Source: a phage. From it: a DNA stretch of 64,000 bases. Shown here piece by piece: positions 2-19,489 of the stretch (the first letter of the stretch is position 1; every line of letters begins with the position of its first letter). The translations under genes and the position numbers were made by a program. The notes under the pieces are model-generated. The model saw nothing but the letters and a program-made list of their open reading frames with translations, did not search any database and was not told the origin of the DNA. The stretch is taken from the NCBI GenBank assembly GCA_025830695.1, contig GCA_025830695.1_4111.2; one strand, 5' to 3'.

Positions 2-343
2 GACTTCCGTGCTATCTTTAATAGTAATGATGATATTCTACCAAGTGGACGTCCACGTCCTGAGTCTTATCTTATGCATCCATCTTATGGTGTAGCAGAT
101 ACGCTTGAACAGATTATGAATAAGTACAAGAACCTAATTGAAGGTCCAGAAGAAATTGTCCTGTGCTATCACCCAGTACTGAAGTCTGAACAACCAAAGG
201 ATGGTGGATGGCGTTGGCATAAGAATGGTGAGTATATCGGTACTAAACGAAGTAAAGAACGTTTTGAGTACTTGTATGATGAGCCAGATGTTGATGTGGT
301 TTTGTGTTATAATTTTATTAAGGTGAAAAAGAAATGTATCTAG
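2..343 (+). CDS. hypothetical protein, 5' end outside window
   Basis: Frame open from window start to stop at 343; track ORF 74..343 is the internal-ATG version. Confidence 0.5.
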   Translation, partial: DFRAIFNSNDDILPSGRPRPESYLMHPSYGVADTLEQIMNKYKNLIEGPEEIVLCYHPVLKSEQPKDGGWRWHKNGEYIGTKRSKERFEYLYDEPDVDVVLCYNFIKVKKKCI

Positions 344-576
344 TACTAAGTTTTGTTGTTGCACTATTGTTTATGTTCTATCCTACACTAGTGGCATTAG
401 CCACTAGACGAACGATGGTAGATCTCACTACTGTATTCTTGCTAAACGTGGCATTAGTACTGGTGTCTATTATCATTCCAGTGAGCTTTACAGTTATTGA
501 TATTATTTCGGTATTACTCTTCGTGTTAAGTTATCTTATGCTTATTGAAGAAACAAATGTTGACAAACGTTCGTAG
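334..576 (+). CDS. small membrane protein (80 aa)
   Basis: ORF overlaps upstream stop; hydrophobic throughout. Confidence 0.5.
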   Translation: MYLVLSFVVALLFMFYPTLVALATRRTMVDLTTVFLLNVALVLVSIIIPVSFTVIDIISVLLFVLSYLMLIEETNVDKRS

Positions 577-8449: not shown

Positions 8450-8457
8450 TAATAAAA

Positions 8458-8482
8458 GGGTTGACTTCGGTCAGCCTTTTTT
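8458..8482 (+). terminator. intrinsic terminator GGGTTGACTTCGGTCAGCC + T6; stem TTGACT 18 nt upstream of TATGAT
   Basis: Hairpin plus T-tract; TATGAT at 8485-8490. Confidence 0.85.
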
Positions 8483-8518
8483 GTTATGATGTTGGTATTA
8501 ACTACAGAGGATAAAGTA

Positions 8519-9160
8519 ATGACTAAGCAAGAAATATTCAAAACTTTAATTGACATTTTGCGTCCATCAAAAACTCGTTGTGCGATGGAGTTTGATATTC
8601 CTTATGCTGAACGCGTAATCTTTCCACAAGTTAAAGCTGCTGGACTTACTTTGCTTGGAATGGGGATGTACTCTGTAGTAGTTGAACATAAAAACTATCC
8701 TGGACGTGCATTTAAAGTAACCACTTCACGCTGGGATGGTTTTCGTGCTTATGCAAAGTACTGCATTGAAAACGCAGGAACCAAGTTTCTTCCAGTGATC
8801 TACAGTGCAAACGAACAAGGAAACTTTGGATGGTATGAGATGGACAAGTACTATCCTATAATTAAACAAAAAAATAATTATGATGACTTTGTTAGTACTA
8901 AAATTGGAGATTTATATTCTTATGCACATGCTGGTCAGTACGCTACTTCAGTGAATGATATGCGTGGTAATTCTGAAGAGATTGCTATTGCGACGGTCGC
9001 TGCTAACATCATGAAAGAGTTTCACGGGCGTTTTGTACCAGACATTCATTCCAGTAATGTCATGATGGATAAAGATGGCAATGTATTCATTACTGATCCT
9101 CTTTCGTGTGATGTACGTAGAGAAATACCAGTTACTGAAGAAGATCCAGTTTTTTATTGA
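8519..9160 (+). CDS. kinase-like motif protein (213 aa)
   Basis: GAGGA SD; GMGMYSVVV...AFKV and DIHSSN...ITDP resemble kinase Gly-loop and catalytic-loop motifs. Confidence 0.5.
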   Translation: MTKQEIFKTLIDILRPSKTRCAMEFDIPYAERVIFPQVKAAGLTLLGMGMYSVVVEHKNYPGRAFKVTTSRWDGFRAYAKYCIENAGTKFLPVIYSANEQGNFGWYEMDKYYPIIKQKNNYDDFVSTKIGDLYSYAHAGQYATSVNDMRGNSEEIAIATVAANIMKEFHGRFVPDIHSSNVMMDKDGNVFITDPLSCDVRREIPVTEEDPVFY

Positions 9161-9221
9161 CAGAACTGATGTTCTGGTGTATTCTTAATAAACCATAAAA
9201 ATTGCGGTAAAGGATAAAATC

Positions 9222-9503
9222 ATGCGTTCATTTGAAAAATTAATAGGTAAGCATCTTTTATCTGAAATTGATGCAGACGTTAAAGAATTATCCAAATCAA
9301 AAAGTTACATTCATTTGGATGAACTGTTTATTAAGTACGGTGAGATTGGTTTTAAGTCATTATTTGTTTTTACTATGAAAGTACATAGTTTAAAGTACTT
9401 CGATTTGAGTTCTAAAGATGGTGAACCGAATCTATATTACATGTATTACCTTAAGAACAAAGATGAAGCTAATACATTACTCTCTGAATATATATTGGGG
9501 TAA
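9222..9503 (+). CDS. hypothetical protein (93 aa)
   Basis: ORF with AAAGGA SD. Confidence 0.55.
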   Translation: MRSFEKLIGKHLLSEIDADVKELSKSKSYIHLDELFIKYGEIGFKSLFVFTMKVHSLKYFDLSSKDGEPNLYYMYYLKNKDEANTLLSEYILG

Positions 9504-9505
9504 AA

Positions 9506-9844
9506 ATGGAACAATATTTTGAATTAATAAACAAAGTATCATTTTATGTAGTATCTTTGGTTTGGGTGTATTATATGTTTTGCTACATTATTGCATTCTT
9601 CCGATACACTACTTTATATGAACGTATCTACTATGATGCCCCAATTTCATTCTTGATGTTTTGTGCATGTACGTGGGGAATATTAGAAGTACTGATATGT
9701 GGGTATAGTACTGATGAATTAAATCTGGTATCGGTCTTGACTGGGTTTTCATTTGTTGTTATGATAGCTGCCGTTCCAGTATGGTTGTTCTTTGGACTAG
9801 TTCATCGCATTGATATATGGCGTTCTAATATCCCTGAAAAGTAA
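9506..9844 (+). CDS. small membrane protein, paralog family M1 (112 aa)
   Basis: Three TM-like segments; C-terminal NIPEK tail. Confidence 0.55.
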   Translation: MEQYFELINKVSFYVVSLVWVYYMFCYIIAFFRYTTLYERIYYDAPISFLMFCACTWGILEVLICGYSTDELNLVSVLTGFSFVVMIAAVPVWLFFGLVHRIDIWRSNIPEK

Positions 9845-9853
9845 GGATTGGTA

Positions 9854-10195
9854 ATGATTTATTACACTAACATGTTTGCCTATGCTGTTGCTTGCATTTA
9901 CATTGTGTACTTCTTATTCGGTGGAGTACTGTGCTTCTTTAAGTACAAAACGTTGTTCAACCGAATGTACCCAAATCATCCAATTGTAGTTGTACTTTTG
10001 ATTCTTTCAGTTTCTCAAATAATCGTTGAAACTACAATGGGTATCAGTAGTGTACATTATAGTTTTGGCACTATAGTAATTATTACTATGCTTATTGCAT
10101 ACATTTTAGTACTTGGATATGGTATCTTTGGTAATATTGGTATGAAAATGTATCATCGAATTAAAACATTACGTGATAATCTACCGGAGCGTTGA
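9854..10195 (+). CDS. small membrane protein, paralog family M1
   Basis: In-frame ATG after AAGGA; C-terminal NLPER tail. Confidence 0.55.
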   Translation: MIYYTNMFAYAVACIYIVYFLFGGVLCFFKYKTLFNRMYPNHPIVVVLLILSVSQIIVETTMGISSVHYSFGTIVIITMLIAYILVLGYGIFGNIGMKMYHRIKTLRDNLPER

Positions 10196-10196
10196 T

Positions 10197-10541
10197 ATGT
10201 ATAATTTGAACCTAATCTCATATATTATAACAACACTGTTTACATTCTATGCCTTTGTTGGTATAATCCTACTGTACTTTAAATTTTATAAAGTGTTTAA
10301 CCGTTTCTATCCTTCAATGGAGAATGAGTTTTTCTTTGTGTTGTACGTAGGTTACACATTAATGGCTACATGTTTCACTGTAGCCGATGGTGTCATCGGC
10401 ATTAAAACTGATTCCCCAAATGGTAGTACGCTGGTTGCATTTATTCTTACTGGATTCCTTGCAACTTATATAGCCTTCATTACAACATGGTCAGTGGTTG
10501 AATTTCTCTTGCGACTACGAAAGAATATGCCAAATCGATAG
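10197..10541 (+). CDS. small membrane protein, paralog family M1
   Basis: ATG 1 nt after upstream stop; C-terminal NMPNR tail. Confidence 0.55.
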   Translation: MYNLNLISYIITTLFTFYAFVGIILLYFKFYKVFNRFYPSMENEFFFVLYVGYTLMATCFTVADGVIGIKTDSPNGSTLVAFILTGFLATYIAFITTWSVVEFLLRLRKNMPNR

Positions 10542-10550
10542 GAGACATAT

Positions 10551-10805
10551 ATGTTTGCGTTGCGTAATAAAAACACTAAAGAATTATTATGTATTGATAC
10601 CGTATGGGATTGTGCGGGATCAACTACAGTTCTTGAAGAAGGAACTGGATATTGCGTGTTTGTTGTTCATGATAGGAATGAACTCGAATTATTACTTGCT
10701 GAGTTCAATGCTGGTGGTAATCCTAACAGTACTGAATACCCTGAGATTATCAATCCAGCACCACCAGGCTCTTATGAAATTCTACAACTGTGGGAGTTGA
10801 AGTAA
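10551..10805 (+). CDS. hypothetical protein (84 aa)
   Basis: ORF with AGGAGA SD. Confidence 0.55.
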   Translation: MFALRNKNTKELLCIDTVWDCAGSTTVLEEGTGYCVFVVHDRNELELLLAEFNAGGNPNSTEYPEIINPAPPGSYEILQLWELK

Positions 10806-11185
10806 TGCGTCAAATGCACAAAGTAACCGAGCTAAACAAGCGTCTGGTTAAACAATCAATGTTCGAGGATAAAGAGTCTTATTATAACTTTAAACGTGCT
10901 GTAGAGGCTGCTATCCACATTCAGAAGCTTAAAGAACGTGGTTGTATTATTCTGGAAAATGGGTCGGAAGTTGTAACGGATGACTTTAGTGTAGCGTTTG
11001 ATGTTTCACCTGACGGGACGCTATCAATGCCCCGCTTAGGAACTGGAAACATGACTGTTTGGGTTGGCTTCACTATGGGGAATGTACCTGGTACTGTATA
11101 CGTAGATGATGCAGAATTGAAAGACAGTTTCAAAAACTTATCTTATCTTGAACCACAATACGCACATGAAATGAATTTATTTTGA
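10805..11185 (+). CDS. hypothetical protein (126 aa)
   Basis: ATG overlaps upstream stop. Confidence 0.5.
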   Translation: MRQMHKVTELNKRLVKQSMFEDKESYYNFKRAVEAAIHIQKLKERGCIILENGSEVVTDDFSVAFDVSPDGTLSMPRLGTGNMTVWVGFTMGNVPGTVYVDDAELKDSFKNLSYLEPQYAHEMNLF

Positions 11186-11186
11186 G

Positions 11187-11243
11187 TTGACAAACACATT
11201 CCGTACTATATAATGCTTATCAAGGGGATGAACTTCTCATCCC
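11187..11243 (+). promoter_or_regulatory. promoter (TTGACA-16-TATAAT) + 5'-UTR stem-loop (PeSL-like)
   Basis: TTGACA 11187-11192, TATAAT 11209-11214, hairpin GGGGATGA-ACTTC-TCATCCC. Confidence 0.6.
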
Positions 11244-11261
11244 TACAATCGAGGAACTACC

Positions 11262-11816
11262 ATGATTACTTTTAAGAAAACTGCTAACCACATCCATGAA
11301 ATCTACATTAACGGTCACAAAGCTGGCCTTCTTCGTTTACTCGCCCATCACCCTGATGCTACCGTATCTGATAATGAACCTAAAGATTGGCGTGTCTTTT
11401 TCTTTGGAAAGTACAGTGATTTTCAAGTATCAAACCTGAAGAACATTCGTTCAGTATGCACGTTAACTGAAATTAAAGAAAAGTTAGCACAAGCATTGAA
11501 AACTAATCCAGATGGTGTTCTTCCACCTGATAACTTTGTAGAGAAAGGTTATGCCTTAGCTCATTTCAAAGATGGTACTATTCAATCTATCAGTACTGAA
11601 TATGAATATCATTGGACTGAGTACTTCACTTATGGTTCGAGTAATACATTGATGGATTCACGTAGTAAATTGGAAGAAGTACTGACTCGTATGAATGAAC
11701 GCGAGCGTCAGTTATATGACAAACCAGAAATGTGGAGTTCAACTTACATTGACCGTATTGACTATGTTATTATGACTCCAATCTTTGACACTGCTTACTA
11801 TGATTCTTTGAAATAA
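11262..11816 (+). CDS. hypothetical protein (184 aa)
   Basis: ORF with GAGGAA SD. Confidence 0.6.
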   Translation: MITFKKTANHIHEIYINGHKAGLLRLLAHHPDATVSDNEPKDWRVFFFGKYSDFQVSNLKNIRSVCTLTEIKEKLAQALKTNPDGVLPPDNFVEKGYALAHFKDGTIQSISTEYEYHWTEYFTYGSSNTLMDSRSKLEEVLTRMNERERQLYDKPEMWSSTYIDRIDYVIMTPIFDTAYYDSLK

Positions 11817-11827
11817 GGATAACTTAT

Positions 11828-12004
11828 ATGAAACTACGTACTCGTAATCGACTGATGGATGCACTGTACCATGAACAGCTTTCACTGAATGAAGTGAAGC
11901 GTCAGTTAATGTACACATATCAGTTTCCCGCTCGCATTGCAAAACAACGTGCTAAAGAATTGCTGAAAGAAGCAATCGAGTACTGGGAATCTGATTCATA
12001 CTAA
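11828..12004 (+). CDS. hypothetical protein (58 aa)
   Basis: AAGGA SD; below track cutoff; fills gap. Confidence 0.4.
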   Translation: MKLRTRNRLMDALYHEQLSLNEVKRQLMYTYQFPARIAKQRAKELLKEAIEYWESDSY

Positions 12005-12043
12005 TATTACGTGATATGTCACGTTAATTAAGTGAGGCGATAA

Positions 12044-12304
12044 ATGAAAATATTATTAGTTCTAATACTACTAATACTACTAATAGTTTTACCATTTACT
12101 TTAGTATCCCCTGAACTTGCATGGAATGTATTTGTGTACTTAGTATGTACTATTGTAGTAAATGGTATCTTGTTCTTAGTTCTATTCATAAATGGAATAG
12201 GACACGGTGGAGGATGGACCAGTACTGCTGATATTGTACATAAAACCACTATGTCTTTATTTGTAATGTGGAATTTGTTCTGGACTTGGTTTGTGTTCTT
12301 CTAA
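12044..12304 (+). CDS. small membrane protein (86 aa)
   Basis: GAGG SD; two hydrophobic helices. Confidence 0.55.
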   Translation: MKILLVLILLILLIVLPFTLVSPELAWNVFVYLVCTIVVNGILFLVLFINGIGHGGGWTSTADIVHKTTMSLFVMWNLFWTWFVFF

Positions 12305-12312
12305 TTAAAAAT

Positions 12313-12684
12313 ATGAATATAGATTTGAAAGGTGCAACACGAACTGTTATCCTCATTGGGGAATATGCTATCAAGATTCCAACCTTTAAAAGTTGGAAGC
12401 TATTCTTAACAGGGATGATAGCTAACCTCAATGAACGTTCGTGGATGCAGTACTCCAAACGTAGTGATAGTAGTATCTGTCCTACGTTGTGGTCATCATG
12501 TACTGGACTAGTAACTGTACAGAAACGTTGTAAGCCAGTGCAACATAGGGGTTTATTTTGGGTGGAGTTGTGTGCTTTAGCATTGAATTCAGAGTTAAGT
12601 ACTGACTTCTTCTATTCAGATGCGAAGCCAGAAAACTTTGGATATCTGGATGGTAAGTTAGTTAAACTTGATTATGGAGATTAA
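12313..12684 (+). CDS. kinase-like motif protein (123 aa)
   Basis: DAKPENFG...KLVKLDYG resembles kinase catalytic loop and DFG-like motifs. Confidence 0.5.
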   Translation: MNIDLKGATRTVILIGEYAIKIPTFKSWKLFLTGMIANLNERSWMQYSKRSDSSICPTLWSSCTGLVTVQKRCKPVQHRGLFWVELCALALNSELSTDFFYSDAKPENFGYLDGKLVKLDYGD

Positions 12685-12685
12685 T

Positions 12686-12955
12686 ATGTACGCATTGTAT
12701 AATAAAGAAAAGAAACGATTTGCTAAGGTTGAAATTTCGATTGATACGTTTGATATGTTGGAGTACTGTATTGTAACGGACCTATATGCTAACTTGTATT
12801 ACGTTCTTGATGACGTATCAGTACTGCAACGATTGCTTGAGAATTCCAAAAGTCAATGCCAGGGCATCCATGATGGTTCATCCTATGAAACTCCTGAGTG
12901 TTCATATGGCTATCTGGACGGCTATGAGATTGTTAAGTTGGGGATCATTGAATAA
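12686..12955 (+). CDS. hypothetical protein (89 aa)
   Basis: ATG after GGAGA, 1 nt after upstream stop. Confidence 0.5.
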   Translation: MYALYNKEKKRFAKVEISIDTFDMLEYCIVTDLYANLYYVLDDVSVLQRLLENSKSQCQGIHDGSSYETPECSYGYLDGYEIVKLGIIE

Positions 12956-12961
12956 AGAAAA

Positions 12962-12986
12962 GGGTTGACTTCGGTCAGCCCTTTTT
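12962..12986 (+). terminator. intrinsic terminator GGGTTGACTTCGGTCAGCCC + T5; stem TTGACT 18 nt upstream of TATAAT
   Basis: Hairpin plus T-tract; TATAAT at 12989-12994. Confidence 0.85.
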
Positions 12987-13022
12987 GCTATAATTATTTC
13001 ATCAAGACGAGAGGATGAATAC

Positions 13023-13538
13023 ATGACACGCATTAACTTAGTACACGTTAAAGAACTTGCTGACCAACATCTGATGGCTGAATATCGTGAACTCCCACGT
13101 GTATTTGGTGCTGTACAAAAACACGTTCAAGCACGTAAGCGTGTACGTGATTTCAAAATTAATAGTACTTATCTGTTAGGTTCAGGTCATGTGACATTCT
13201 TTTACGACAAGTTATTGTACTTACAGAAGCGTCATATTGATATTGTCAACGAATGTCTGCGTCGTGGTATGAAGATTCAAAACACTGAAGTAAACGACAT
13301 TAGCGGCTTCCCTGCTGAGTTTTGTAATGACTACGTACCAACGGAGTCAGAGATTAAAATGTCTCGTGATCGTTTGATTGAGAAGCTCCAGATGAAGCCT
13401 ACGTGGTATAAGTTTACTGATGTTGAATGTCCACAGTACGTTAAAGATATGCAGAACGTAAGTAGTAAGAACGAATCTAGTACTGATATGTTCGACGAAA
13501 TTGAAGAACAAATCAAAGATGAAATGAATAATTATTAA
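13023..13538 (+). CDS. denV: pyrimidine-dimer DNA glycosylase / endonuclease V (171 aa)
   Basis: N-terminal ~130 aa closely match T4 endonuclease V ([40 protein letters not shown]); extra acidic C-terminal tail. Confidence 0.93.
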
Positions 13539-13576
13539 AGGAAAGGGTTGACTTCGGTTACACAAAGGAACATAAC

Positions 13577-13771
13577 ATGTTATTAGTATATTCAACGCGT
13601 TTCTGGATTTCTTTTATTGTACTATCGCTAATCGGCTTCGGTTTGAGTATACTCTTTTCGTGGGATGAATTGGGTACATGGTATTATGAAGTCCCGTGGT
13701 ACATGAAGATAGCTCCTTGTTATGCGGCATTGTTCGTGTCATTCCTTCTTGTTGTCTTCAGCGAGGATTAG
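13577..13771 (+). CDS. small membrane protein (64 aa)
   Basis: AAGGAA SD; two hydrophobic helices. Confidence 0.5.
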   Translation: MLLVYSTRFWISFIVLSLIGFGLSILFSWDELGTWYYEVPWYMKIAPCYAALFVSFLLVVFSED

Positions 13772-13822
13772 TTGATGTAGTATGTGATACACCAAAGTAT
13801 TTGGATATTTGATATATAAACA

Positions 13823-13851
13823 TTGACACCTGTTCTATCTTTCTGTATTAT
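13823..13851 (+). promoter_or_regulatory. sigma70-like promoter (TTGACA-17-TATTAT)
   Basis: Consensus -35 with 17-bp spacer upstream of 13878 gene. Confidence 0.55.
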
Positions 13852-13877
13852 GTACATCACCAAATGAGGAATACAAC

Positions 13878-14237
13878 ATGGCATCTTTAAGTGAAATCGC
13901 AGAATACAACCCACTAACAATCTCAACAATTCAACGTACAAAAACTTTTTATTTCCGTCCTGCTGATGGATGGAAACGTGGAATGAATGGTGACTATCGA
14001 GTACTGGAAGATTCGCTCATCGAGCGTATCAACTCTGAACTACAGAACTATGAAGGTGTTAAAGTTGTGCGTTCAACTTCTCGTTATTTTGAGTACTACA
14101 TTGAGTCTTCAACTGTAAATGAAAACTCATCATTATCGGTGGACAACACTGATATTCTTCGTAATGCAGTTGGTATGTTATGCAACATTGCAGAAGAAAT
14201 GGGATTAACTATTAGTACTATGAGTGAATTAGAATAA
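13878..14237 (+). CDS. hypothetical protein (119 aa)
   Basis: ORF with GAGGAA SD. Confidence 0.6.
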   Translation: MASLSEIAEYNPLTISTIQRTKTFYFRPADGWKRGMNGDYRVLEDSLIERINSELQNYEGVKVVRSTSRYFEYYIESSTVNENSSLSVDNTDILRNAVGMLCNIAEEMGLTISTMSELE

Positions 14238-14243
14238 CATAAA

Positions 14244-14268
14244 GGGTTGACTTCGGTCAGCCCTTTTT
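14244..14268 (+). terminator. intrinsic terminator GGGTTGACTTCGGTCAGCCC + T5; stem TTGACT 18 nt upstream of TATAAT
   Basis: Hairpin plus T-tract; TATAAT at 14271-14276. Confidence 0.85.
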
Positions 14269-14304
14269 GCTATAATCATTTCATCAACTGAAGAGGGTAA
14301 AGAA

Positions 14305-15075
14305 ATGACCAGAGAAGCACGCAGCATTCAAATTCAGAAAAACTTCAACTCCATGATGGTTGCTCTTGAGTGTTTGCTCGATGATAGCAGTACTGTAAAA
14401 AGTATGGTTGTCAGTGGTGCTCCTGGTGTTGGTAAGACTTACACCTTGTCCCAACGTCTCCAGAAGGCTCATGACGCAGCAGAATGGAACGTAGCTACTA
14501 TCAGTGGTAAGATGACTACACTGGCTCTGTACGAAGTTCTGTACAAGAATCGTCACAGCACCAACGTGTTAGTACTGGATGATATGGACAGCATCTTTGA
14601 TTCAGAAGACGGTATGAACCTGCTCAAAGCAGTACTGGACAGCGGTAAACGTACTGTGTCTTACATGACTAGCTCTAAGTACTTAACCACTAACGGTATC
14701 CCTAACAGCTTTGATTTTAACGGTCGTATCGTATTCATCACTAACAAAGATTTAGCATTAGATGCTAAAGCTAAAACGAAAATGTCTGCTCACTATGCTG
14801 CTCTTATGTCTCGTTCTGTATACGTTGACTTACAGATTCAGACCAAAAGCGATATCATGATTCACATTGAGAACGTGATGAATCAGACTAACATTTTAGA
14901 ATCTAAGGGTATTAACCGTAATGGTAGTAAAGCAATTCTGAACTGGATGTTGAAGCACGAAGATTCTCTTCGTTCACCTTCACTGCGTATGCCACTGTTG
15001 ATTTCGGCAGTATATAACAACAACCCATACGATTGGGAAGAGCAGTGCGAAAACTTGTTCCTTGAGAAAATTTAA
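14305..15075 (+). CDS. P-loop NTPase / AAA-like ATPase (256 aa)
   Basis: Walker A GAPGVGKT and Walker B-like VLVLDDMD. Confidence 0.7.
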   Translation: MTREARSIQIQKNFNSMMVALECLLDDSSTVKSMVVSGAPGVGKTYTLSQRLQKAHDAAEWNVATISGKMTTLALYEVLYKNRHSTNVLVLDDMDSIFDSEDGMNLLKAVLDSGKRTVSYMTSSKYLTTNGIPNSFDFNGRIVFITNKDLALDAKAKTKMSAHYAALMSRSVYVDLQIQTKSDIMIHIENVMNQTNILESKGINRNGSKAILNWMLKHEDSLRSPSLRMPLLISAVYNNNPYDWEEQCENLFLEKI

Positions 15076-15082
15076 TTCCATA

Positions 15083-15111
15083 TTGACAGTACTACCATAG
15101 TGTAGTACTAT
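15083..15111 (+). promoter_or_regulatory. sigma70-like promoter (TTGACA-17-TACTAT)
   Basis: Upstream of M2 membrane-gene cluster. Confidence 0.5.
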
Positions 15112-15140
15112 AACTTAATATTCACCACCGGAGATACGAT

Positions 15141-15479
15141 ATGCTTGAGTTTTTTAATTCAGATACAATGATTAGTATTACTTTGATTTATCTGTTTGGT
15201 TTTTTCTTTTATCATGCACTGGTTGTAGTACTGTGGTATTTTAAAAAGAAAATTGTTTTTAAACTGTATCCAGTAAGGAATTCATCACTAGTTCTTTACA
15301 CACTAGTTCAAGGTTTGTTTGCAATTGTTGGTCTTATGGCACACTTAATTTATTGTGCCAATCCTCACTTGAACTCAATCTCACAATATATTGTATTCTT
15401 TGGGTTGTTCATTTGGTTAGTTGTATACTTAATCCATCTCATTATTCATGGTAGAGATAAAATTCGCGGAGACTTCTAA
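15141..15479 (+). CDS. small membrane protein, paralog family M2 (112 aa)
   Basis: First of seven coupled hydrophobic ORFs. Confidence 0.55.
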   Translation: MLEFFNSDTMISITLIYLFGFFFYHALVVVLWYFKKKIVFKLYPVRNSSLVLYTLVQGLFAIVGLMAHLIYCANPHLNSISQYIVFFGLFIWLVVYLIHLIIHGRDKIRGDF

Positions 15480-15826
15480 TGTTTGAAGCTTATCTTGAGT
15501 TTTTAAGGAGTAGTTCAGTTGCACATTCACTTGCAGGGATTATTCTAACAACTTATGTATCATTTTGGGTAGTTATGTTTCTAGGATGGTATTTTAAACG
15601 ACAATTCTATAAACGTAATGGTGAAGATTTTATGAATTCTGCCATTAATCAATCGTTGTTTGCATCAACATTGATTGCATGTATTGTAGCAACACTCACA
15701 GGAAAGGTACTACCAGCTTTTTCCGCAGTTTACGGCACACTTGGGATGATATGTTTAACTTTTATATTGACCATTAAAATTTGTTGTGTTATGATTGAAC
15801 TTCGAAATAAGATACCGGAGGAATGA
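15479..15826 (+). CDS. small membrane protein, paralog family M2
   Basis: Stop/start overlap; C-terminal KIPEE tail. Confidence 0.55.
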   Translation: MFEAYLEFLRSSSVAHSLAGIILTTYVSFWVVMFLGWYFKRQFYKRNGEDFMNSAINQSLFASTLIACIVATLTGKVLPAFSAVYGTLGMICLTFILTIKICCVMIELRNKIPEE

Positions 15827-16161
15827 TGGAGTACTTTATTGATTTACTGCCGTGGTATATGAAAGTTAGTACCATGTACTATATTATTAGTGCTGGATTC
15901 TACTTTCTGATGTGGTTCTTTAAACGACCAATTTCAGTATTCATCGCTGATAACATGCTGCAATTAAAATTACACGCATGGTTTGGTATGGCGATGATTA
16001 TGCCTATTATTCACTACTCAATGATTAGTAGAGGTTTCCGTTCTAATGGTGAACCAATTGTATTAGTATTCTATTGGGGTTCAACTATTGCATATGTAAG
16101 TTTGTTGTTGTTCCCAGTCGTTCATAAGTTACGTGCTAAAGTTCCTGATGCGAGGTACTAA
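15823..16161 (+). CDS. small membrane protein, paralog family M2
   Basis: ATGA overlap with upstream gene. Confidence 0.55.
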   Translation: MMEYFIDLLPWYMKVSTMYYIISAGFYFLMWFFKRPISVFIADNMLQLKLHAWFGMAMIMPIIHYSMISRGFRSNGEPIVLVFYWGSTIAYVSLLLFPVVHKLRAKVPDARY

Positions 16162-16475
16162 TGGATATAGTAACATTGATTTACACGTTGTATTCATTCT
16201 ATTTCATTATGTGTTGGGTTGGATTTTTATTTGTACTCAAGATGTTTGATTATGTTGAAAAACAGATAAAAGAATTTTGTATTCCTTTTATCGGTTCAAC
16301 CATTATTAGTGTTTCTTGTGTGTATTTTTTGGTTTTTGATCCACCAGATAACACTGCAATGATTGACTTGATGTTACTACCAACAACTGTTACTTTTTTA
16401 TGTAGTCTGATGCCGCCGATTAGCCGTGGACTAACAGAATTTAGACGCAATCAAAAGCGTAAACGAGGGATGTAA
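16161..16475 (+). CDS. small membrane protein, paralog family M2
   Basis: Overlapping stop/start; C-terminal KRKRG. Confidence 0.55.
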   Translation: MDIVTLIYTLYSFYFIMCWVGFLFVLKMFDYVEKQIKEFCIPFIGSTIISVSCVYFLVFDPPDNTAMIDLMLLPTTVTFLCSLMPPISRGLTEFRRNQKRKRGM

Positions 16476-16843
16476 TGGAAATTGCTCTTATTATCTTAAC
16501 TGCTATGCTGTTTATTAGTACTGTGGTTATAATTGGTAAATTCTTTTGTGTATCATTTTTAGAAACGGTATACGATGAAATTGCTGATGATTATGAATTA
16601 CAAGCCGGATTTTTCATTACGTATTGGCTTAGTTTATTTTGTCTAGTCATTGCTTGGATTTTACATATCTTTAAATGGGGTATGGTAGACGGTGATCCTA
16701 TTATGGCAATTATTGTTCTAGTGTTTGGTATCCTTGGTGGTGCAGTGCATAATCTAATGGTTATCTGGCAAACTGTTCAATATGTTTTGGTTCCCTATTT
16801 CGAAAAGATGCACAGTACAATTAAAAAACGTAAACGAGGTTAG
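16475..16843 (+). CDS. small membrane protein, paralog family M2
   Basis: Overlapping stop/start; C-terminal KRKRG. Confidence 0.55.
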   Translation: MEIALIILTAMLFISTVVIIGKFFCVSFLETVYDEIADDYELQAGFFITYWLSLFCLVIAWILHIFKWGMVDGDPIMAIIVLVFGILGGAVHNLMVIWQTVQYVLVPYFEKMHSTIKKRKRG

Positions 16844-16844
16844 T

Positions 16845-17207
16845 ATGAACGGGATAGAATTATCTTTCGTTGGTCAATTACTAGTAATGGCGTATACATT
16901 TATCTTCTCACTGAATGCATTCGTGTGCATTGGGAAGTACTTCCATAAGCGACCATTATCAAATATATATGATGTAATCCAAAAGAGATATAGTCCAGCA
17001 TATACTGTGTTGGGTACAGTATTCAATTTTGGTTTTATTGTATTAATAATTGGACTGTTCACATCCTCTTTGAATACAATAACCTTCGGTCTTATGATAT
17101 GTTCATTGGTATTAGCCGTAATTATATGTTGTTTAGTACTGCACCTTGTGGTACTATTGTATATAAAGATCTCTGAAATCCACCAACGTTTGGGTATGAG
17201 GAAATAA
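16845..17207 (+). CDS. small membrane protein, paralog family M2
   Basis: In-frame ATG right after upstream stop. Confidence 0.5.
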   Translation: MNGIELSFVGQLLVMAYTFIFSLNAFVCIGKYFHKRPLSNIYDVIQKRYSPAYTVLGTVFNFGFIVLIIGLFTSSLNTITFGLMICSLVLAVIICCLVLHLVVLLYIKISEIHQRLGMRK

Positions 17208-17208
17208 T

Positions 17209-17580
17209 ATGAGTTACCGTGAGATATTTTCCATTATTTCAATTATTATGTTCAGTACTGGAACACTGGTATGGTTATTATACTTCTTCTGTATTAATCC
17301 AGTGTATAATATGTTATGTAATATTAAATCAAGTGCCGGATATATCACTTTTATGGTCTTTATGGGATATTATTGTCTAAGCATTTTAGGTGTTGTTTTG
17401 GTTGTTATATTTGATGTGGGACCAAATAGTGATGGTATGGAAATACATGAATTAATAACCATGTTTGGATGTATGATACCAACAGCACTACTGTTTGTAG
17501 CTACTGGTAGTGGATTGATAAAATTATATAATTATTTAAAATCCATTCATAATTCCATTCATAATAAGCGTATGTCATAA
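17209..17580 (+). CDS. small membrane protein, paralog family M2
   Basis: ATG 1 nt after upstream stop. Confidence 0.55.
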   Translation: MSYREIFSIISIIMFSTGTLVWLLYFFCINPVYNMLCNIKSSAGYITFMVFMGYYCLSILGVVLVVIFDVGPNSDGMEIHELITMFGCMIPTALLFVATGSGLIKLYNYLKSIHNSIHNKRMS

Positions 17581-17587
17581 TAAAAAA

Positions 17588-17609
17588 TCCAGTACTATTA
17601 AGTACTGGA
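17588..17609 (+). other. palindromic hairpin TCCAGTACT-ATTA-AGTACTGGA
   Basis: Perfect 9-bp inverted repeat with two AGTACT copies. Confidence 0.5.
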
Positions 17610-17622
17610 TGTATAAGGAGTT

Positions 17623-18285
17623 ATGATGAAATCAAAATTAGGTTTGTTTTATAAAAACTATTTTGTTAAACAACGTAAATTTATAAAAAAATATTTCTCT
17701 GGCGAGAAGTCTAGTCCTATAATCTTTAAAAGACCAAGTTATAATACTTACTTAGCTGGTGCTAAACAGTCTAAGAAATTTATTACTCTTTTACATAAAA
17801 ACAAAATTAAAGCTTCTTATGTTGAAACGAGAAGAAACTCATCAATAACTCCTGGTGATTTTATTGAGTACGGATGTTTCAATATTAAGTACAATGATAA
17901 TACATACTTTATGGATATTGATTGTAATACATCCAATCTTTTTAACATTGTAGTAAATCCATTAAAACAATATAATGTTTATGGTGATTCTATTATCAAA
18001 TTAATCAAAAACAAAGATAGCTTTGATTTTGAAATAAATGTTTTAGATGATAATTTTGACGAAGTACCAGTAAACCCTGAAATCTGTGATATTTTAAACA
18101 GTTTAAAAGGTAGTACCTACAATATATCATCTGATTTAATGTTTCAGTACTCATTAATCCATAAAGATATTGAAAAGTATATTGAATGCTCCAGAATTTT
18201 GAATTTTCTCTATGATGAATTTAAAAAGAGTTCTAAAATAACTGCATACACTTTGTACAATATTCCTAAAATGGTGAATCTTTGA
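17623..18285 (+). CDS. hypothetical protein (220 aa)
   Basis: AAGGAG SD; end converges on minus-strand array. Confidence 0.6.
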   Translation: MMKSKLGLFYKNYFVKQRKFIKKYFSGEKSSPIIFKRPSYNTYLAGAKQSKKFITLLHKNKIKASYVETRRNSSITPGDFIEYGCFNIKYNDNTYFMDIDCNTSNLFNIVVNPLKQYNVYGDSIIKLIKNKDSFDFEINVLDDNFDEVPVNPEICDILNSLKGSTYNISSDLMFQYSLIHKDIEKYIECSRILNFLYDEFKKSSKITAYTLYNIPKMVNL

Positions 18286-19418
18286 CAAATACAGTACTGG
18301 CAACTCCACCGTCTGTAATATTTTGTCCAGTACTGTAAATTTGTATACCATCGGTTAAGTAAGTTCTGTATAAAGTTGCTGTAACATATACGTTATTCAT
18401 ATTCATCTCTGTTGGTAGTACACATTTGGTATAGGCCGACACATCGGTTTGTGTACCTATACCTAATTGTCCTGCGTTATCGCCTGTGTTATTACCAGTT
18501 GCGTAAACACCCAATGAAGTTATAATATGATTAGAAAAATATGAATAACCTACACTGCTTCTTATTATATCGCCAGGTGCTTGTGTTGTTTGTCTTAACG
18601 AAATATATGTTTGTGATGTAGAACCATTTGCTAACTGACCAAAGTATTGACCACCACCATGATATGCAAATAATTTATTAGTACTATTATTATTTGCTAT
18701 AGCAAAAGCAAAGTAACTTGAGTTTGTTGTATAATCTTTTACTGTATAGGTATTAGTTATTTGAGAACATAACGTGTACTTTGAATATAACGTCATGTCG
18801 GTTGTACCTACGCCTGATATTGCACCAGTATAATACAATCTTCCATCGGTTCCAATAAAACCTTGCATAAGAAAATTTGCCAATATTTTGGATGGTGTAA
18901 CTCCAGTAGGTACTGTTCCTTGTACAAATGATGAAAGTGAATCAGTACTTCTACCATTTCCTAGTTGACCATAACTACCATAGCCTGTATTCCATATAGT
19001 GTTGTCTGTGCATAATACGCTCAGTGCTCCTGCACTAACTACAATTTGTTTTATTGTTTTGCCTAGGGCTGTTATTCTATCAAACACTATCTTTGCAGAA
19101 GACCACGTTGTTGACTTATCAGTTGATAAACCGAATGATGCACCATTTCCAGCGTACCACATCGTATTATCTTTCTTTTTTATTAAGGTTGACTCATACC
19201 CGCACCCATAGATCTTCTACGTTTGTATTGCATAAAACCCATTTCGTTTGTGTTATAATATTACCTATACCCATTTGCCCAAACTCTTGAGAGCCTCTAC
19301 TGTACAACGTACCATCTGACATAAGGGCAAAAACTGTCGTATCAGATGAAGCTATTTTTGTAACAGAAGGTTGTATGTTCTTTTTTGATGATGTGATAAT
19401 TCTTCCAAAGGGTAGCAT
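18266..19418 (-). pseudogene. RCC1-like repeat protein, disrupted copy (paralog 1)
   Basis: MLPFGRI N-terminal fragment stops at 19194; rest resumes at 19162 in another frame after a 31-nt A-rich gap. Confidence 0.5.
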
Positions 19419-19489
19419 TGTATCCTCCAAATGTAAATCGTTATTATATTTAGGACAAAAAAATGCCAGTACAAAATACTGGCTTTATT

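Follow-up and report, generated by a model that had tools for sequence, protein, structure and literature searches.

The DNA analyzed here, referred to as the window, is a 64,000-nucleotide (nt) stretch of a phage genome (GenBank assembly GCA_025830695.1, contig GCA_025830695.1_4111.2), and the subject of the analysis is a set of ten small genes arranged in two clusters, A1 to A3 at positions 9506–10541 and B1 to B7 at positions 15141–17580. The initial annotation of the window had described these clusters as coupled paralogs encoding small membrane proteins, and all ten open reading frames (ORFs) are indeed present on the plus strand, encoding proteins of 104 to 123 amino acids (aa). In a megablast comparison, positions 9000–18000 align along their entire length with Escherichia phages vB_EcoM_G17 (G17) and Sharanji at 98% identity, and further Asteriusvirus jumbo coliphages, 121Q and PBECO4 among them, are also matched; judged from these matches, the window is that of an Asteriusvirus jumbo coliphage. 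The starts of A2 (ATG 9854), A3 (ATG 10197), and B6 (ATG 16845) were refined and agree with the G17 annotation. Every one of the genes is labelled 'hypothetical protein' in the records of related phages.

All ten genes belong to a single orphan family encoding small proteins of the inner membrane, and all are functional members of it. Plain BLASTP connects only A1, A2, and A3 plus a few weak pairs. Profiles of the orthologous groups, built from the window and from phages A4 and Turkey5 and compared by HHalign, align collinearly at 93% for A with B1, 94.5% for A with B2, 96% for B2 with B3, and 84% for B1 with B2, and at 68%, 51%, 50%, and 47% for the pairs B5–B6, B2–B6, B6–B7, and B5–B7, respectively, with B4 being the weakest. 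In leave-one-orthogroup-out tests, sequences with a BLASTP E value below 1e-3 to the tested gene were dropped, the profile was rebuilt from the remainder, and the search set comprised the 137 ORFs of at least 70 aa beginning with ATG in the whole 64-kb window. These profiles recover each of the ten genes at E values of 6e-6 to 7e-14 and match no other ORF among the 137, even at E ≤ 100, indicating that the ten genes constitute one family and that their grouping is not an artefact of hydrophobicity. The proposed paralogy is thereby borne out, both by the profile-profile matches and by the leave-one-out profiles. Five other small membrane ORFs on the plus strand of the window (334–576, 634–960, 1410–1787, 12044–12304, and 13577–13771) have two or three hydrophobic segments each; the four that reach 70 aa give no match to the family profiles, and the fifth (13577–13771, 64 aa) lies under the 70-aa cutoff. 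Three of these five belong to orphan PHROGs of their own or to none.

Two signature motifs characterize the family across 81 distinct sequences. The first lies at the end of helix 1 that is predicted to be cytoplasmic and reads [IV]-[LG]-[WK]-[FY]-F-[KCR], in shorter form [WY][FY]F[KR], with the Phe invariant (100% of the sequences; F34 in B1); a conserved Tyr is found inside helix 1 and another about nine residues past the Phe motif. The second is the C-terminal tail, [IL]-x-x-[LIF]-[RH]-x-[KN]-[IL]-[PKR], in which the frequencies are 97% for [RH], 83% for [KN], and 75% for [IL]. The short conserved charged tails reported in the initial annotation are thus real, and they consist of an Arg or His column followed by Lys or Asn, Ile or Leu, and Pro, Lys, or Arg.

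Table 1. Genes of the two clusters and the predicted expression signals associated with them.
Feature	Position	Strand	Description
A1	9506..9844	+	112 aa, three-helix family member; phrog_19285; 100% identical to 121Q gp207
A2	9854..10195	+	113 aa, family member; phrog_19285; start agrees with G17_00105
A3	10197..10541	+	114 aa, family member; start agrees with G17_00104
B1	15141..15479	+	112 aa, family member; phrog_19454; AlphaFold2 model with three long helices
B2	15479..15826	+	115 aa, family member; phrog_19046; weak match to phrog_16874 'membrane protein'
B3	15823..16161	+	112 aa, family member; phrog_27396; lowest hydrophobicity of the ten
B4	16161..16475	+	104 aa, family member; phrog_33258; most divergent
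B5	16475..16843	+	122 aa, family member; phrog_26405
B6	16845..17207	+	120 aa, family member
B7	17209..17580	+	123 aa, family member; phrog_27618; last gene of the operon
Sigma-70-like promoter, cluster-A unit	9157..9185	+	TTGACA N17 TATTCT; from consensus scan and intergenic sequence; putative function
Sigma-70-like promoter, cluster-B operon	15083..15111	+	TTGACA N17 TACTAT; putative function
Palindromic hairpin closing the cluster-B operon	17587..17610	.	ATCCAGTACT atta AGTACTGGAT; from terminator scan; annotated terminator in G17

Two to three hydrophobic helices per protein had been proposed; the helices are confirmed and their number is corrected to three, since Kyte-Doolittle analysis of every member shows three hydrophobic segments, each about 19 residues long, the weakest being those of B3. 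Summed over 30 members, Lys and Arg residues number 13 in the N-terminal tail, 89 in loop 1, 14 in loop 2, and 136 in the C-terminal tail, and Asp and Glu residues number 29, 64, 46, and 43 in the same segments. Under the positive-inside rule these counts put loop 1 and the tail on the cytoplasmic side, and the N-terminus and loop 2 on the outer side. All ten proteins are therefore predicted to contain three transmembrane helices, with a periplasmic N-terminus and with loop 1 and the basic C-terminal tail in the cytoplasm, and the charge counts predict the same N-out/C-in arrangement throughout, in keeping with membrane proteins of a single conserved topology. Members lacking a common topology would have refuted the initial annotation, and this is not what is observed. 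An AlphaFold2 model of B1, built on an alignment of 19 sequences, has a mean predicted local distance difference test score (pLDDT) of 79 and displays helices at residues 8–33, 48–73, and 75–107 together with a short helix at residues 38–42. A Foldseek search of the PDB with this model returns nothing at E ≤ 0.001. Its best match in BFVD is a 120-aa paralog from 121Q (probability 0.98), which is probably the B6 ortholog; the related jumbo phages CBB, GAP32, and BF contribute weak matches, annotated as 'putative membrane proteins', whose E values of 1 to 6 were not taken as evidence of homology. Among orthologs, conservation is highest in the N-terminal tail, helix 1, and loop 1 and lowest in helices 2 and 3. 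The conservation of helix 1 is periodic in the manner of a helix, with a peak at 105 degrees (permutation p ∼0.035).

Searches against established families place the ten proteins in none of them. None of the ten proteins matches a Pfam family, and at E ≤ 1 no family recurs in more than two of 30 members; no holin family appears among the 30 members at that threshold, and neither T4 Imm nor any other exclusion family is matched by the ten proteins or the 30 members. In NCBIfam, none of the ten window proteins has a match at E ≤ 0.1, and a comparison of the family profile with PDB sequences gives no significant match. Sub-threshold Pfam, NCBIfam, and PDB matches to unrelated membrane families, for example DUF350 or the MscS transmembrane domain (E = 0.037, PDB), were rejected as compositional. 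PHROGs divides the ten proteins among seven separate families without assigned function, and B2 additionally matches phrog_16874, a 'membrane protein' in the moron and host takeover category, at 7e-6. In the ph0011 record (OP557969), notes reading 'Phi92_gp231', 'Phi92_gp233', and 'Phi92_gp234' point to genes of phi92 to which the family proteins have no detectable similarity, and these labels appear spurious; a tblastn comparison of the ten proteins with the phi92 region gives no match on gp233.

The family has a narrow distribution. Searches by tblastn with A1 and B2 retrieve 36 phage records, all of them Asteriusvirus-like, and exhaustive comparison of the profile with 1.84 billion representative proteins retrieves only 38 clusters, whose members are 99 to 125 aa long apart from two truncated fragments and all of which contain both motifs. 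A profile of mixed paralogs compared with an index of 5.8 billion proteins was a weak query that yielded 22 matches, mostly of the B1 and B4 types, and the search of representatives is the more informative of the two. The contigs with divergent members again carry tandem arrays, of twelve genes in a row in contig L011, at least three in L013, and at least two in L012.

Within cluster B, four of the six gene junctions are overlaps (TAATG three times and ATGA once) and two are 1-nt gaps, and the two junctions of cluster A are gaps of 9 nt and 1 nt. The overlapping stop and start codons described in the initial annotation are accordingly found at those four junctions, and do not extend to the remaining two of cluster B or to either one of cluster A. 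The tight coupling itself is upheld, as the short gaps and overlaps are accompanied by a Shine-Dalgarno sequence, GGAG or GAGG, located 7–13 nt before each downstream start within the C-terminal tail codons of the preceding gene (for example Pro-Glu as CCG GAG, Gly-Asp as GGA GAC, or Arg-Gly as CGA GGN), with the sole exception of A2, for which TAAGGA overlaps the stop codon of A1. Because nearly every successive Shine-Dalgarno sequence sits in the tail codons of the gene before it, all copies would be made together and in similar amounts. The tail motif is not merely a by-product of the Shine-Dalgarno sequence, since A1 retains the peptide IPEK, spelled with CCT GAA, and the [RH]-x-x-I basic tail is retained in B7 as well, the last gene of its cluster, which is coupled to no downstream gene.

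Each transcription unit between 8 and 18 kb has a near-consensus sigma-70-like promoter 30–60 nt ahead of its first start codon (promoters at 8461, 9157, 11187, 12965, 13823, 14247, and 15083). The cluster-A unit comprises, in order, g9222, A1, A2, A3, g10551, and g10805. The hairpin that closes the 2.4-kb cluster-B operon was scored on the minus strand by the terminator scan and, being a palindrome, reads both ways. A strong sigma-70-like promoter before each unit is as expected for early genes and supports the assignment of the clusters to an early-type region, from which we infer early timing of both units. The region also contains a repeated intergenic cassette, AAAGGGTTGACTTCGGTCAGCCCTTTTT(G/T)..TATAAT, at approximately 8452–8490, 12958–12995, and 14240–14277, with a truncated copy at approximately 13541–13562. 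It is composed of a GC hairpin with a UUCG loop followed by a T-run, resembling a terminator, and the stem holds the promoter −35 hexamer TTGACT; copies in A4, Turkey5, and ph0011 cross-match. The signals of the cluster-B unit differ from this cassette in both promoter and terminator.

The family grew through old tandem duplications, and whole units are still occasionally gained or lost. Phages A4 and Turkey5 contain one-to-one orthologs of B1 to B7 in identical order; A-type genes number one in A4 and three in Turkey5, and Turkey5 has a second copy of B4. There are eight B genes each in G17, 121Q, and ph0011, seven in the window, and twelve in a metagenomic relative, so that the seven tandem copies noted initially are confirmed but their number, thought to be unusual, is one below that of most relatives. 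The window and G17 are related by an exact in-register indel of one unit: positions 15141–17700 align to positions 10888–13446 of the G17 locus (L001) at 98.8%, and what precedes the array in the window aligns with what precedes the extra copy in G17. The unit without a counterpart in the window is a gp224-like gene, 'B0', at 10547–10888 of the G17 locus, which is present in G17, 121Q, and ph0011. This is the pattern that unequal recombination between tandem copies would produce. In 121Q the B4 gene is frameshifted and annotated as gp228 and gp229. In Salmonella SD phage records B2 is absent or shortened; the assemblies contain many broken ORFs and seem poor, and they were set aside as evidence for dispensability.

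Ratios of nonsynonymous to synonymous substitution rates (dN/dS) relative to ph0011 are 0.13–0.36 for the ten genes and 0.04–0.21 for flanking genes, indicating purifying selection that tends to be looser than on most of the flanking genes. In comparison with A4, the products of the flanking genes g11262, g11828, g12044, g12313, and denV and of the ATPase gene that precedes cluster B are 93–98% identical, with synonymous divergence (dS) of 0.06–0.44, whereas the products of the A and B genes are 25–67% identical and their dS is saturated. Blocks of high nucleotide identity to A4 span 11187–12712, 12951–13426, and 14236–15077; they start at the promoter that follows the cluster-A unit (11187) and stop at the stop codon of the ATPase gene (15077). 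These limits, together with the contrast in identity, indicate that both membrane-gene units occur as deeply diverged alleles, and that phage lineages exchange each of the two transcription units as an entire cassette.

The function that is favoured here, tentatively and with the recognition that it could well prove wrong, is that of an accessory battery acting early in infection in takeover of the host membrane or in exclusion. It is preferred because the genes belong to early hyperplastic modules for which replacement is seen between genomes that are nearly the same; whole-cassette replacement between such phages may be said to fit an accessory, conflict-related role without proving it. According to this proposal, host sigma-70-type promoters would transcribe both units early in infection, translational coupling within each unit would keep production of the copies joint and balanced, and the proteins would insert into the host cytoplasmic membrane. 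The conserved N-terminal half, comprising helix 1 and the cytoplasmic loop 1, would serve together with the tail as a common handle at the cytoplasmic face, and each paralog would find its own membrane-embedded target, belonging either to the host or to a competing phage, through the divergent helices 2 and 3 and the periplasmic loop. The paralogs would not be lysis proteins.

Several observations weigh against this proposal. Helices 2 and 3 may vary simply through weak constraint on lipid-facing residues, and the periplasmic loop is not the most variable segment, contrary to the simplest expectation for proteins that exclude an incoming phage. The consensus of the promoters is the only basis for early timing. 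There is no characterized homolog among the family matches, no paper found discusses these genes, and the Asteriusvirus papers searched and read yielded no transcriptomic, proteomic, expression, or phenotype data. The superinfection-exclusion or membrane-remodelling function suggested in the initial annotation is thus not supported by these results or by the Pfam searches, in which neither Imm nor any other family is matched. Finally, seven stable types in fixed order suit a multi-subunit complex at least as well.

The last of these points introduces the main rival, which is regarded as unlikely, if less so than the other alternatives: the paralogs would be subunits of a single hetero-oligomeric assembly of the inner membrane, a ring, channel, or scaffold built early and joined through the conserved face of helix 1, and might work with the NrdC.10-like P-loop ATPase encoded upstream. 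Deeply diverged cassettes retain the seven types one-to-one and in unchanged order, which speaks for such an assembly, as do the exchange of whole arrays and not of single genes, the conserved and periodic face of helix 1, and the tight translational coupling, which suggests matched amounts of protein but is in general common in phage early operons. A copy number of 7, 8, or 12, together with the extra B4 of one phage and the frameshifted B4 of 121Q, is awkward for a fixed stoichiometry, and cluster A is a separate unit present in one to three copies.

The position of the ATPase gene also bears on this alternative. The gene (14305–15075, plus strand) lies directly before the array and encodes a 256-aa P-loop/AAA-type ATPase with weak Pfam AAA matches; it belongs to phrog_1250 and is a homolog of NrdC.10 of T4 and RB69. 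In contig L011 the twelve-member array begins 1 nt after a 256-aa ATPase gene whose product is 57.6% identical to that of the window, and the adjacency is kept within the clade, L011 included. These arrangements would suit cooperation of the two, but the ATPase family is widespread, with 1309 matching phage records, and in the T4-like Vibrio phage V07 the gene stands amid genes of nucleotide and DNA metabolism with no array adjoining. The ATPase of the window is 98% identical to that of A4, 58% to that of ph0011, and 57% to that of Turkey5 (57–59% with UE-S1 included), so that two deeply diverged alleles of it exist among Asteriusviruses, and since the arrays of the window and A4 are only 25–67% identical, the ATPase gene swaps alleles independently of the array. 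A functional link between the array and the upstream ATPase was for these reasons not adopted and is kept as a weak lead only.

A more elaborate version of this assembly is judged improbable. Here the seven B types, with the A types as a second set, would be subunits of a hetero-oligomeric inner-membrane machine built by the phage, in amounts matched through coupling. They would evolve and be exchanged as a co-adapted cassette, whose deeply diverged alleles of the 121Q, A4, and Turkey5 types would define groups of incompatibility or exclusion among co-circulating jumbo phages. Comparably improbable is that the genes are dispensable orphan ORFs of a hyperplastic region, without a specific target and kept by weak selection and module shuffling, for example through a generic load on the membrane or a marginal effect on fitness. 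Their location in modules swapped between lineages, their dN/dS above that of most flanking genes, the frameshift in 121Q, and the missing or shortened B2 of the Salmonella SD records would all accord with this explanation, the gaps in these last being weak evidence given the apparent quality of the assemblies. However, all members are under purifying selection, and invariant or near-invariant residues are retained across paralogs that are less than 25% identical, and near-neutral orphan ORFs are therefore unlikely; the retention of seven types across saturated synonymous divergence likewise tells against them. A holin-like or antiholin-like role in setting membrane permeabilization and the timing of lysis is very improbable, because the resemblance to class I holins such as lambda S105 in size, number of helices, N-out/C-in topology, and basic cytoplasmic tail is shared with many unrelated proteins, and opposed to it are the lack of a holin family match for any of 30 members at E ≤ 1, the ten copies, the sigma-70-like promoter context among early-type units, and the absence of an endolysin or spanin gene within the surrounding 10 kb. 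In addition, the genome paper of phage fEgEco12 reports holin and lysozyme as separate lysis genes (PMC13070987).

Some neighbouring genes deserve mention in their own right. The product of the plus-strand gene 8519–9160 is a protein kinase according to the annotations of 121Q and G17; a homolog on metagenome contig L010, 43% identical, has a precomputed match to Phage_T7_kinase in Pfam, and a Pfam scan of the window protein itself finds nothing at E ≤ 0.01. A small plus-strand gene at 12313–12684, whose product ends in ..DAKPENFGYLDGKLVKLDYGD, looks kinase-like by eye. The gene that follows the array in phage A4 (locus L003, 12136–12687) encodes a 183-aa protein with a lipoprotein-like N-terminus (..FIMTGC..), and the corresponding position of the window (17626–18285) is occupied by an unrelated soluble protein of 219 aa. 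Convergent with cluster B, ten consecutive ORFs of approximately 300–430 aa occupy 18266–30525 on the minus strand, and the only one of the ten that was scanned, 18266–19162, contains RCC1-like repeats. A family of eleven RCC1-like 'DNA condensation' proteins has been described in phAPEC6 (PMC7247149); the minus-strand ORFs match it and make up a second large tandem array of paralogs. The domain scan found no known domains in the other neighbours.

Seven PHROG families without an assigned function are hereby merged into a single superfamily, which has two signature motifs and a defined topology and occurs always in coupled tandem arrays of roughly 3 to 12 copies and forms an exchangeable cassette in otherwise near-identical genomes. 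This pattern makes the superfamily a good candidate for a part in conflict between phages, or between phage and host, at the inner membrane. Most of the content of jumbo-phage genomes lacks annotation, and small membrane proteins are the least understood part of it. If the genes prove to be exclusion-specificity cassettes or a multi-subunit membrane machine, the mechanism would be new; if neither is true, the annotation of 36 or more phage genomes is nonetheless improved.

Comparison with known systems places the family as follows. Class I holins, of which lambda S105 is an example, are proteins of about 105 aa whose three transmembrane helices adopt an N-out/C-in topology and whose short cytoplasmic C-terminal tail is highly basic. 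Size, number of helices, topology, and basic tail are thus common to both, whereas sequence and profile similarity are lacking, and the genes described here occur as ten tandem copies behind early-type sigma-70-like promoters with no adjacent endolysin or spanin gene. T4 Imm has two helices and is encoded by a single-copy gene, and T4 Sp has one helix. These proteins and others of the T4-type hyperplastic regions are likewise small accessory proteins of the inner membrane, and their genes lie in variable early regions, dense in promoters, of the genomes of large lytic myoviruses; the present family differs in having no Pfam match to Imm or Sp and in comprising ten paralogs with motifs of their own. 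In T4-type phages, PeSL elements mediate the shuffling of modules (PMC2839356, PMC4122927). The region described here resembles such modules in its repeated terminator-promoter cassettes and in the replacement of membrane-gene units as blocks with breakpoints at unit borders. PeSLs are, however, a means of gene shuffling and not a protein family, Asteriusviruses are not T4-type phages, and the cluster-B unit carries a promoter and terminator other than those of the repeated cassette. With respect to PHROGs 19285, 19454, 19046, 27396, 33258, 26405, 27618, and 16874, the ten proteins are founding members; these are separate families without a tested function in that resource and one superfamily in the present analysis. 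The family is a new superfamily inside a familiar class of phage genes.

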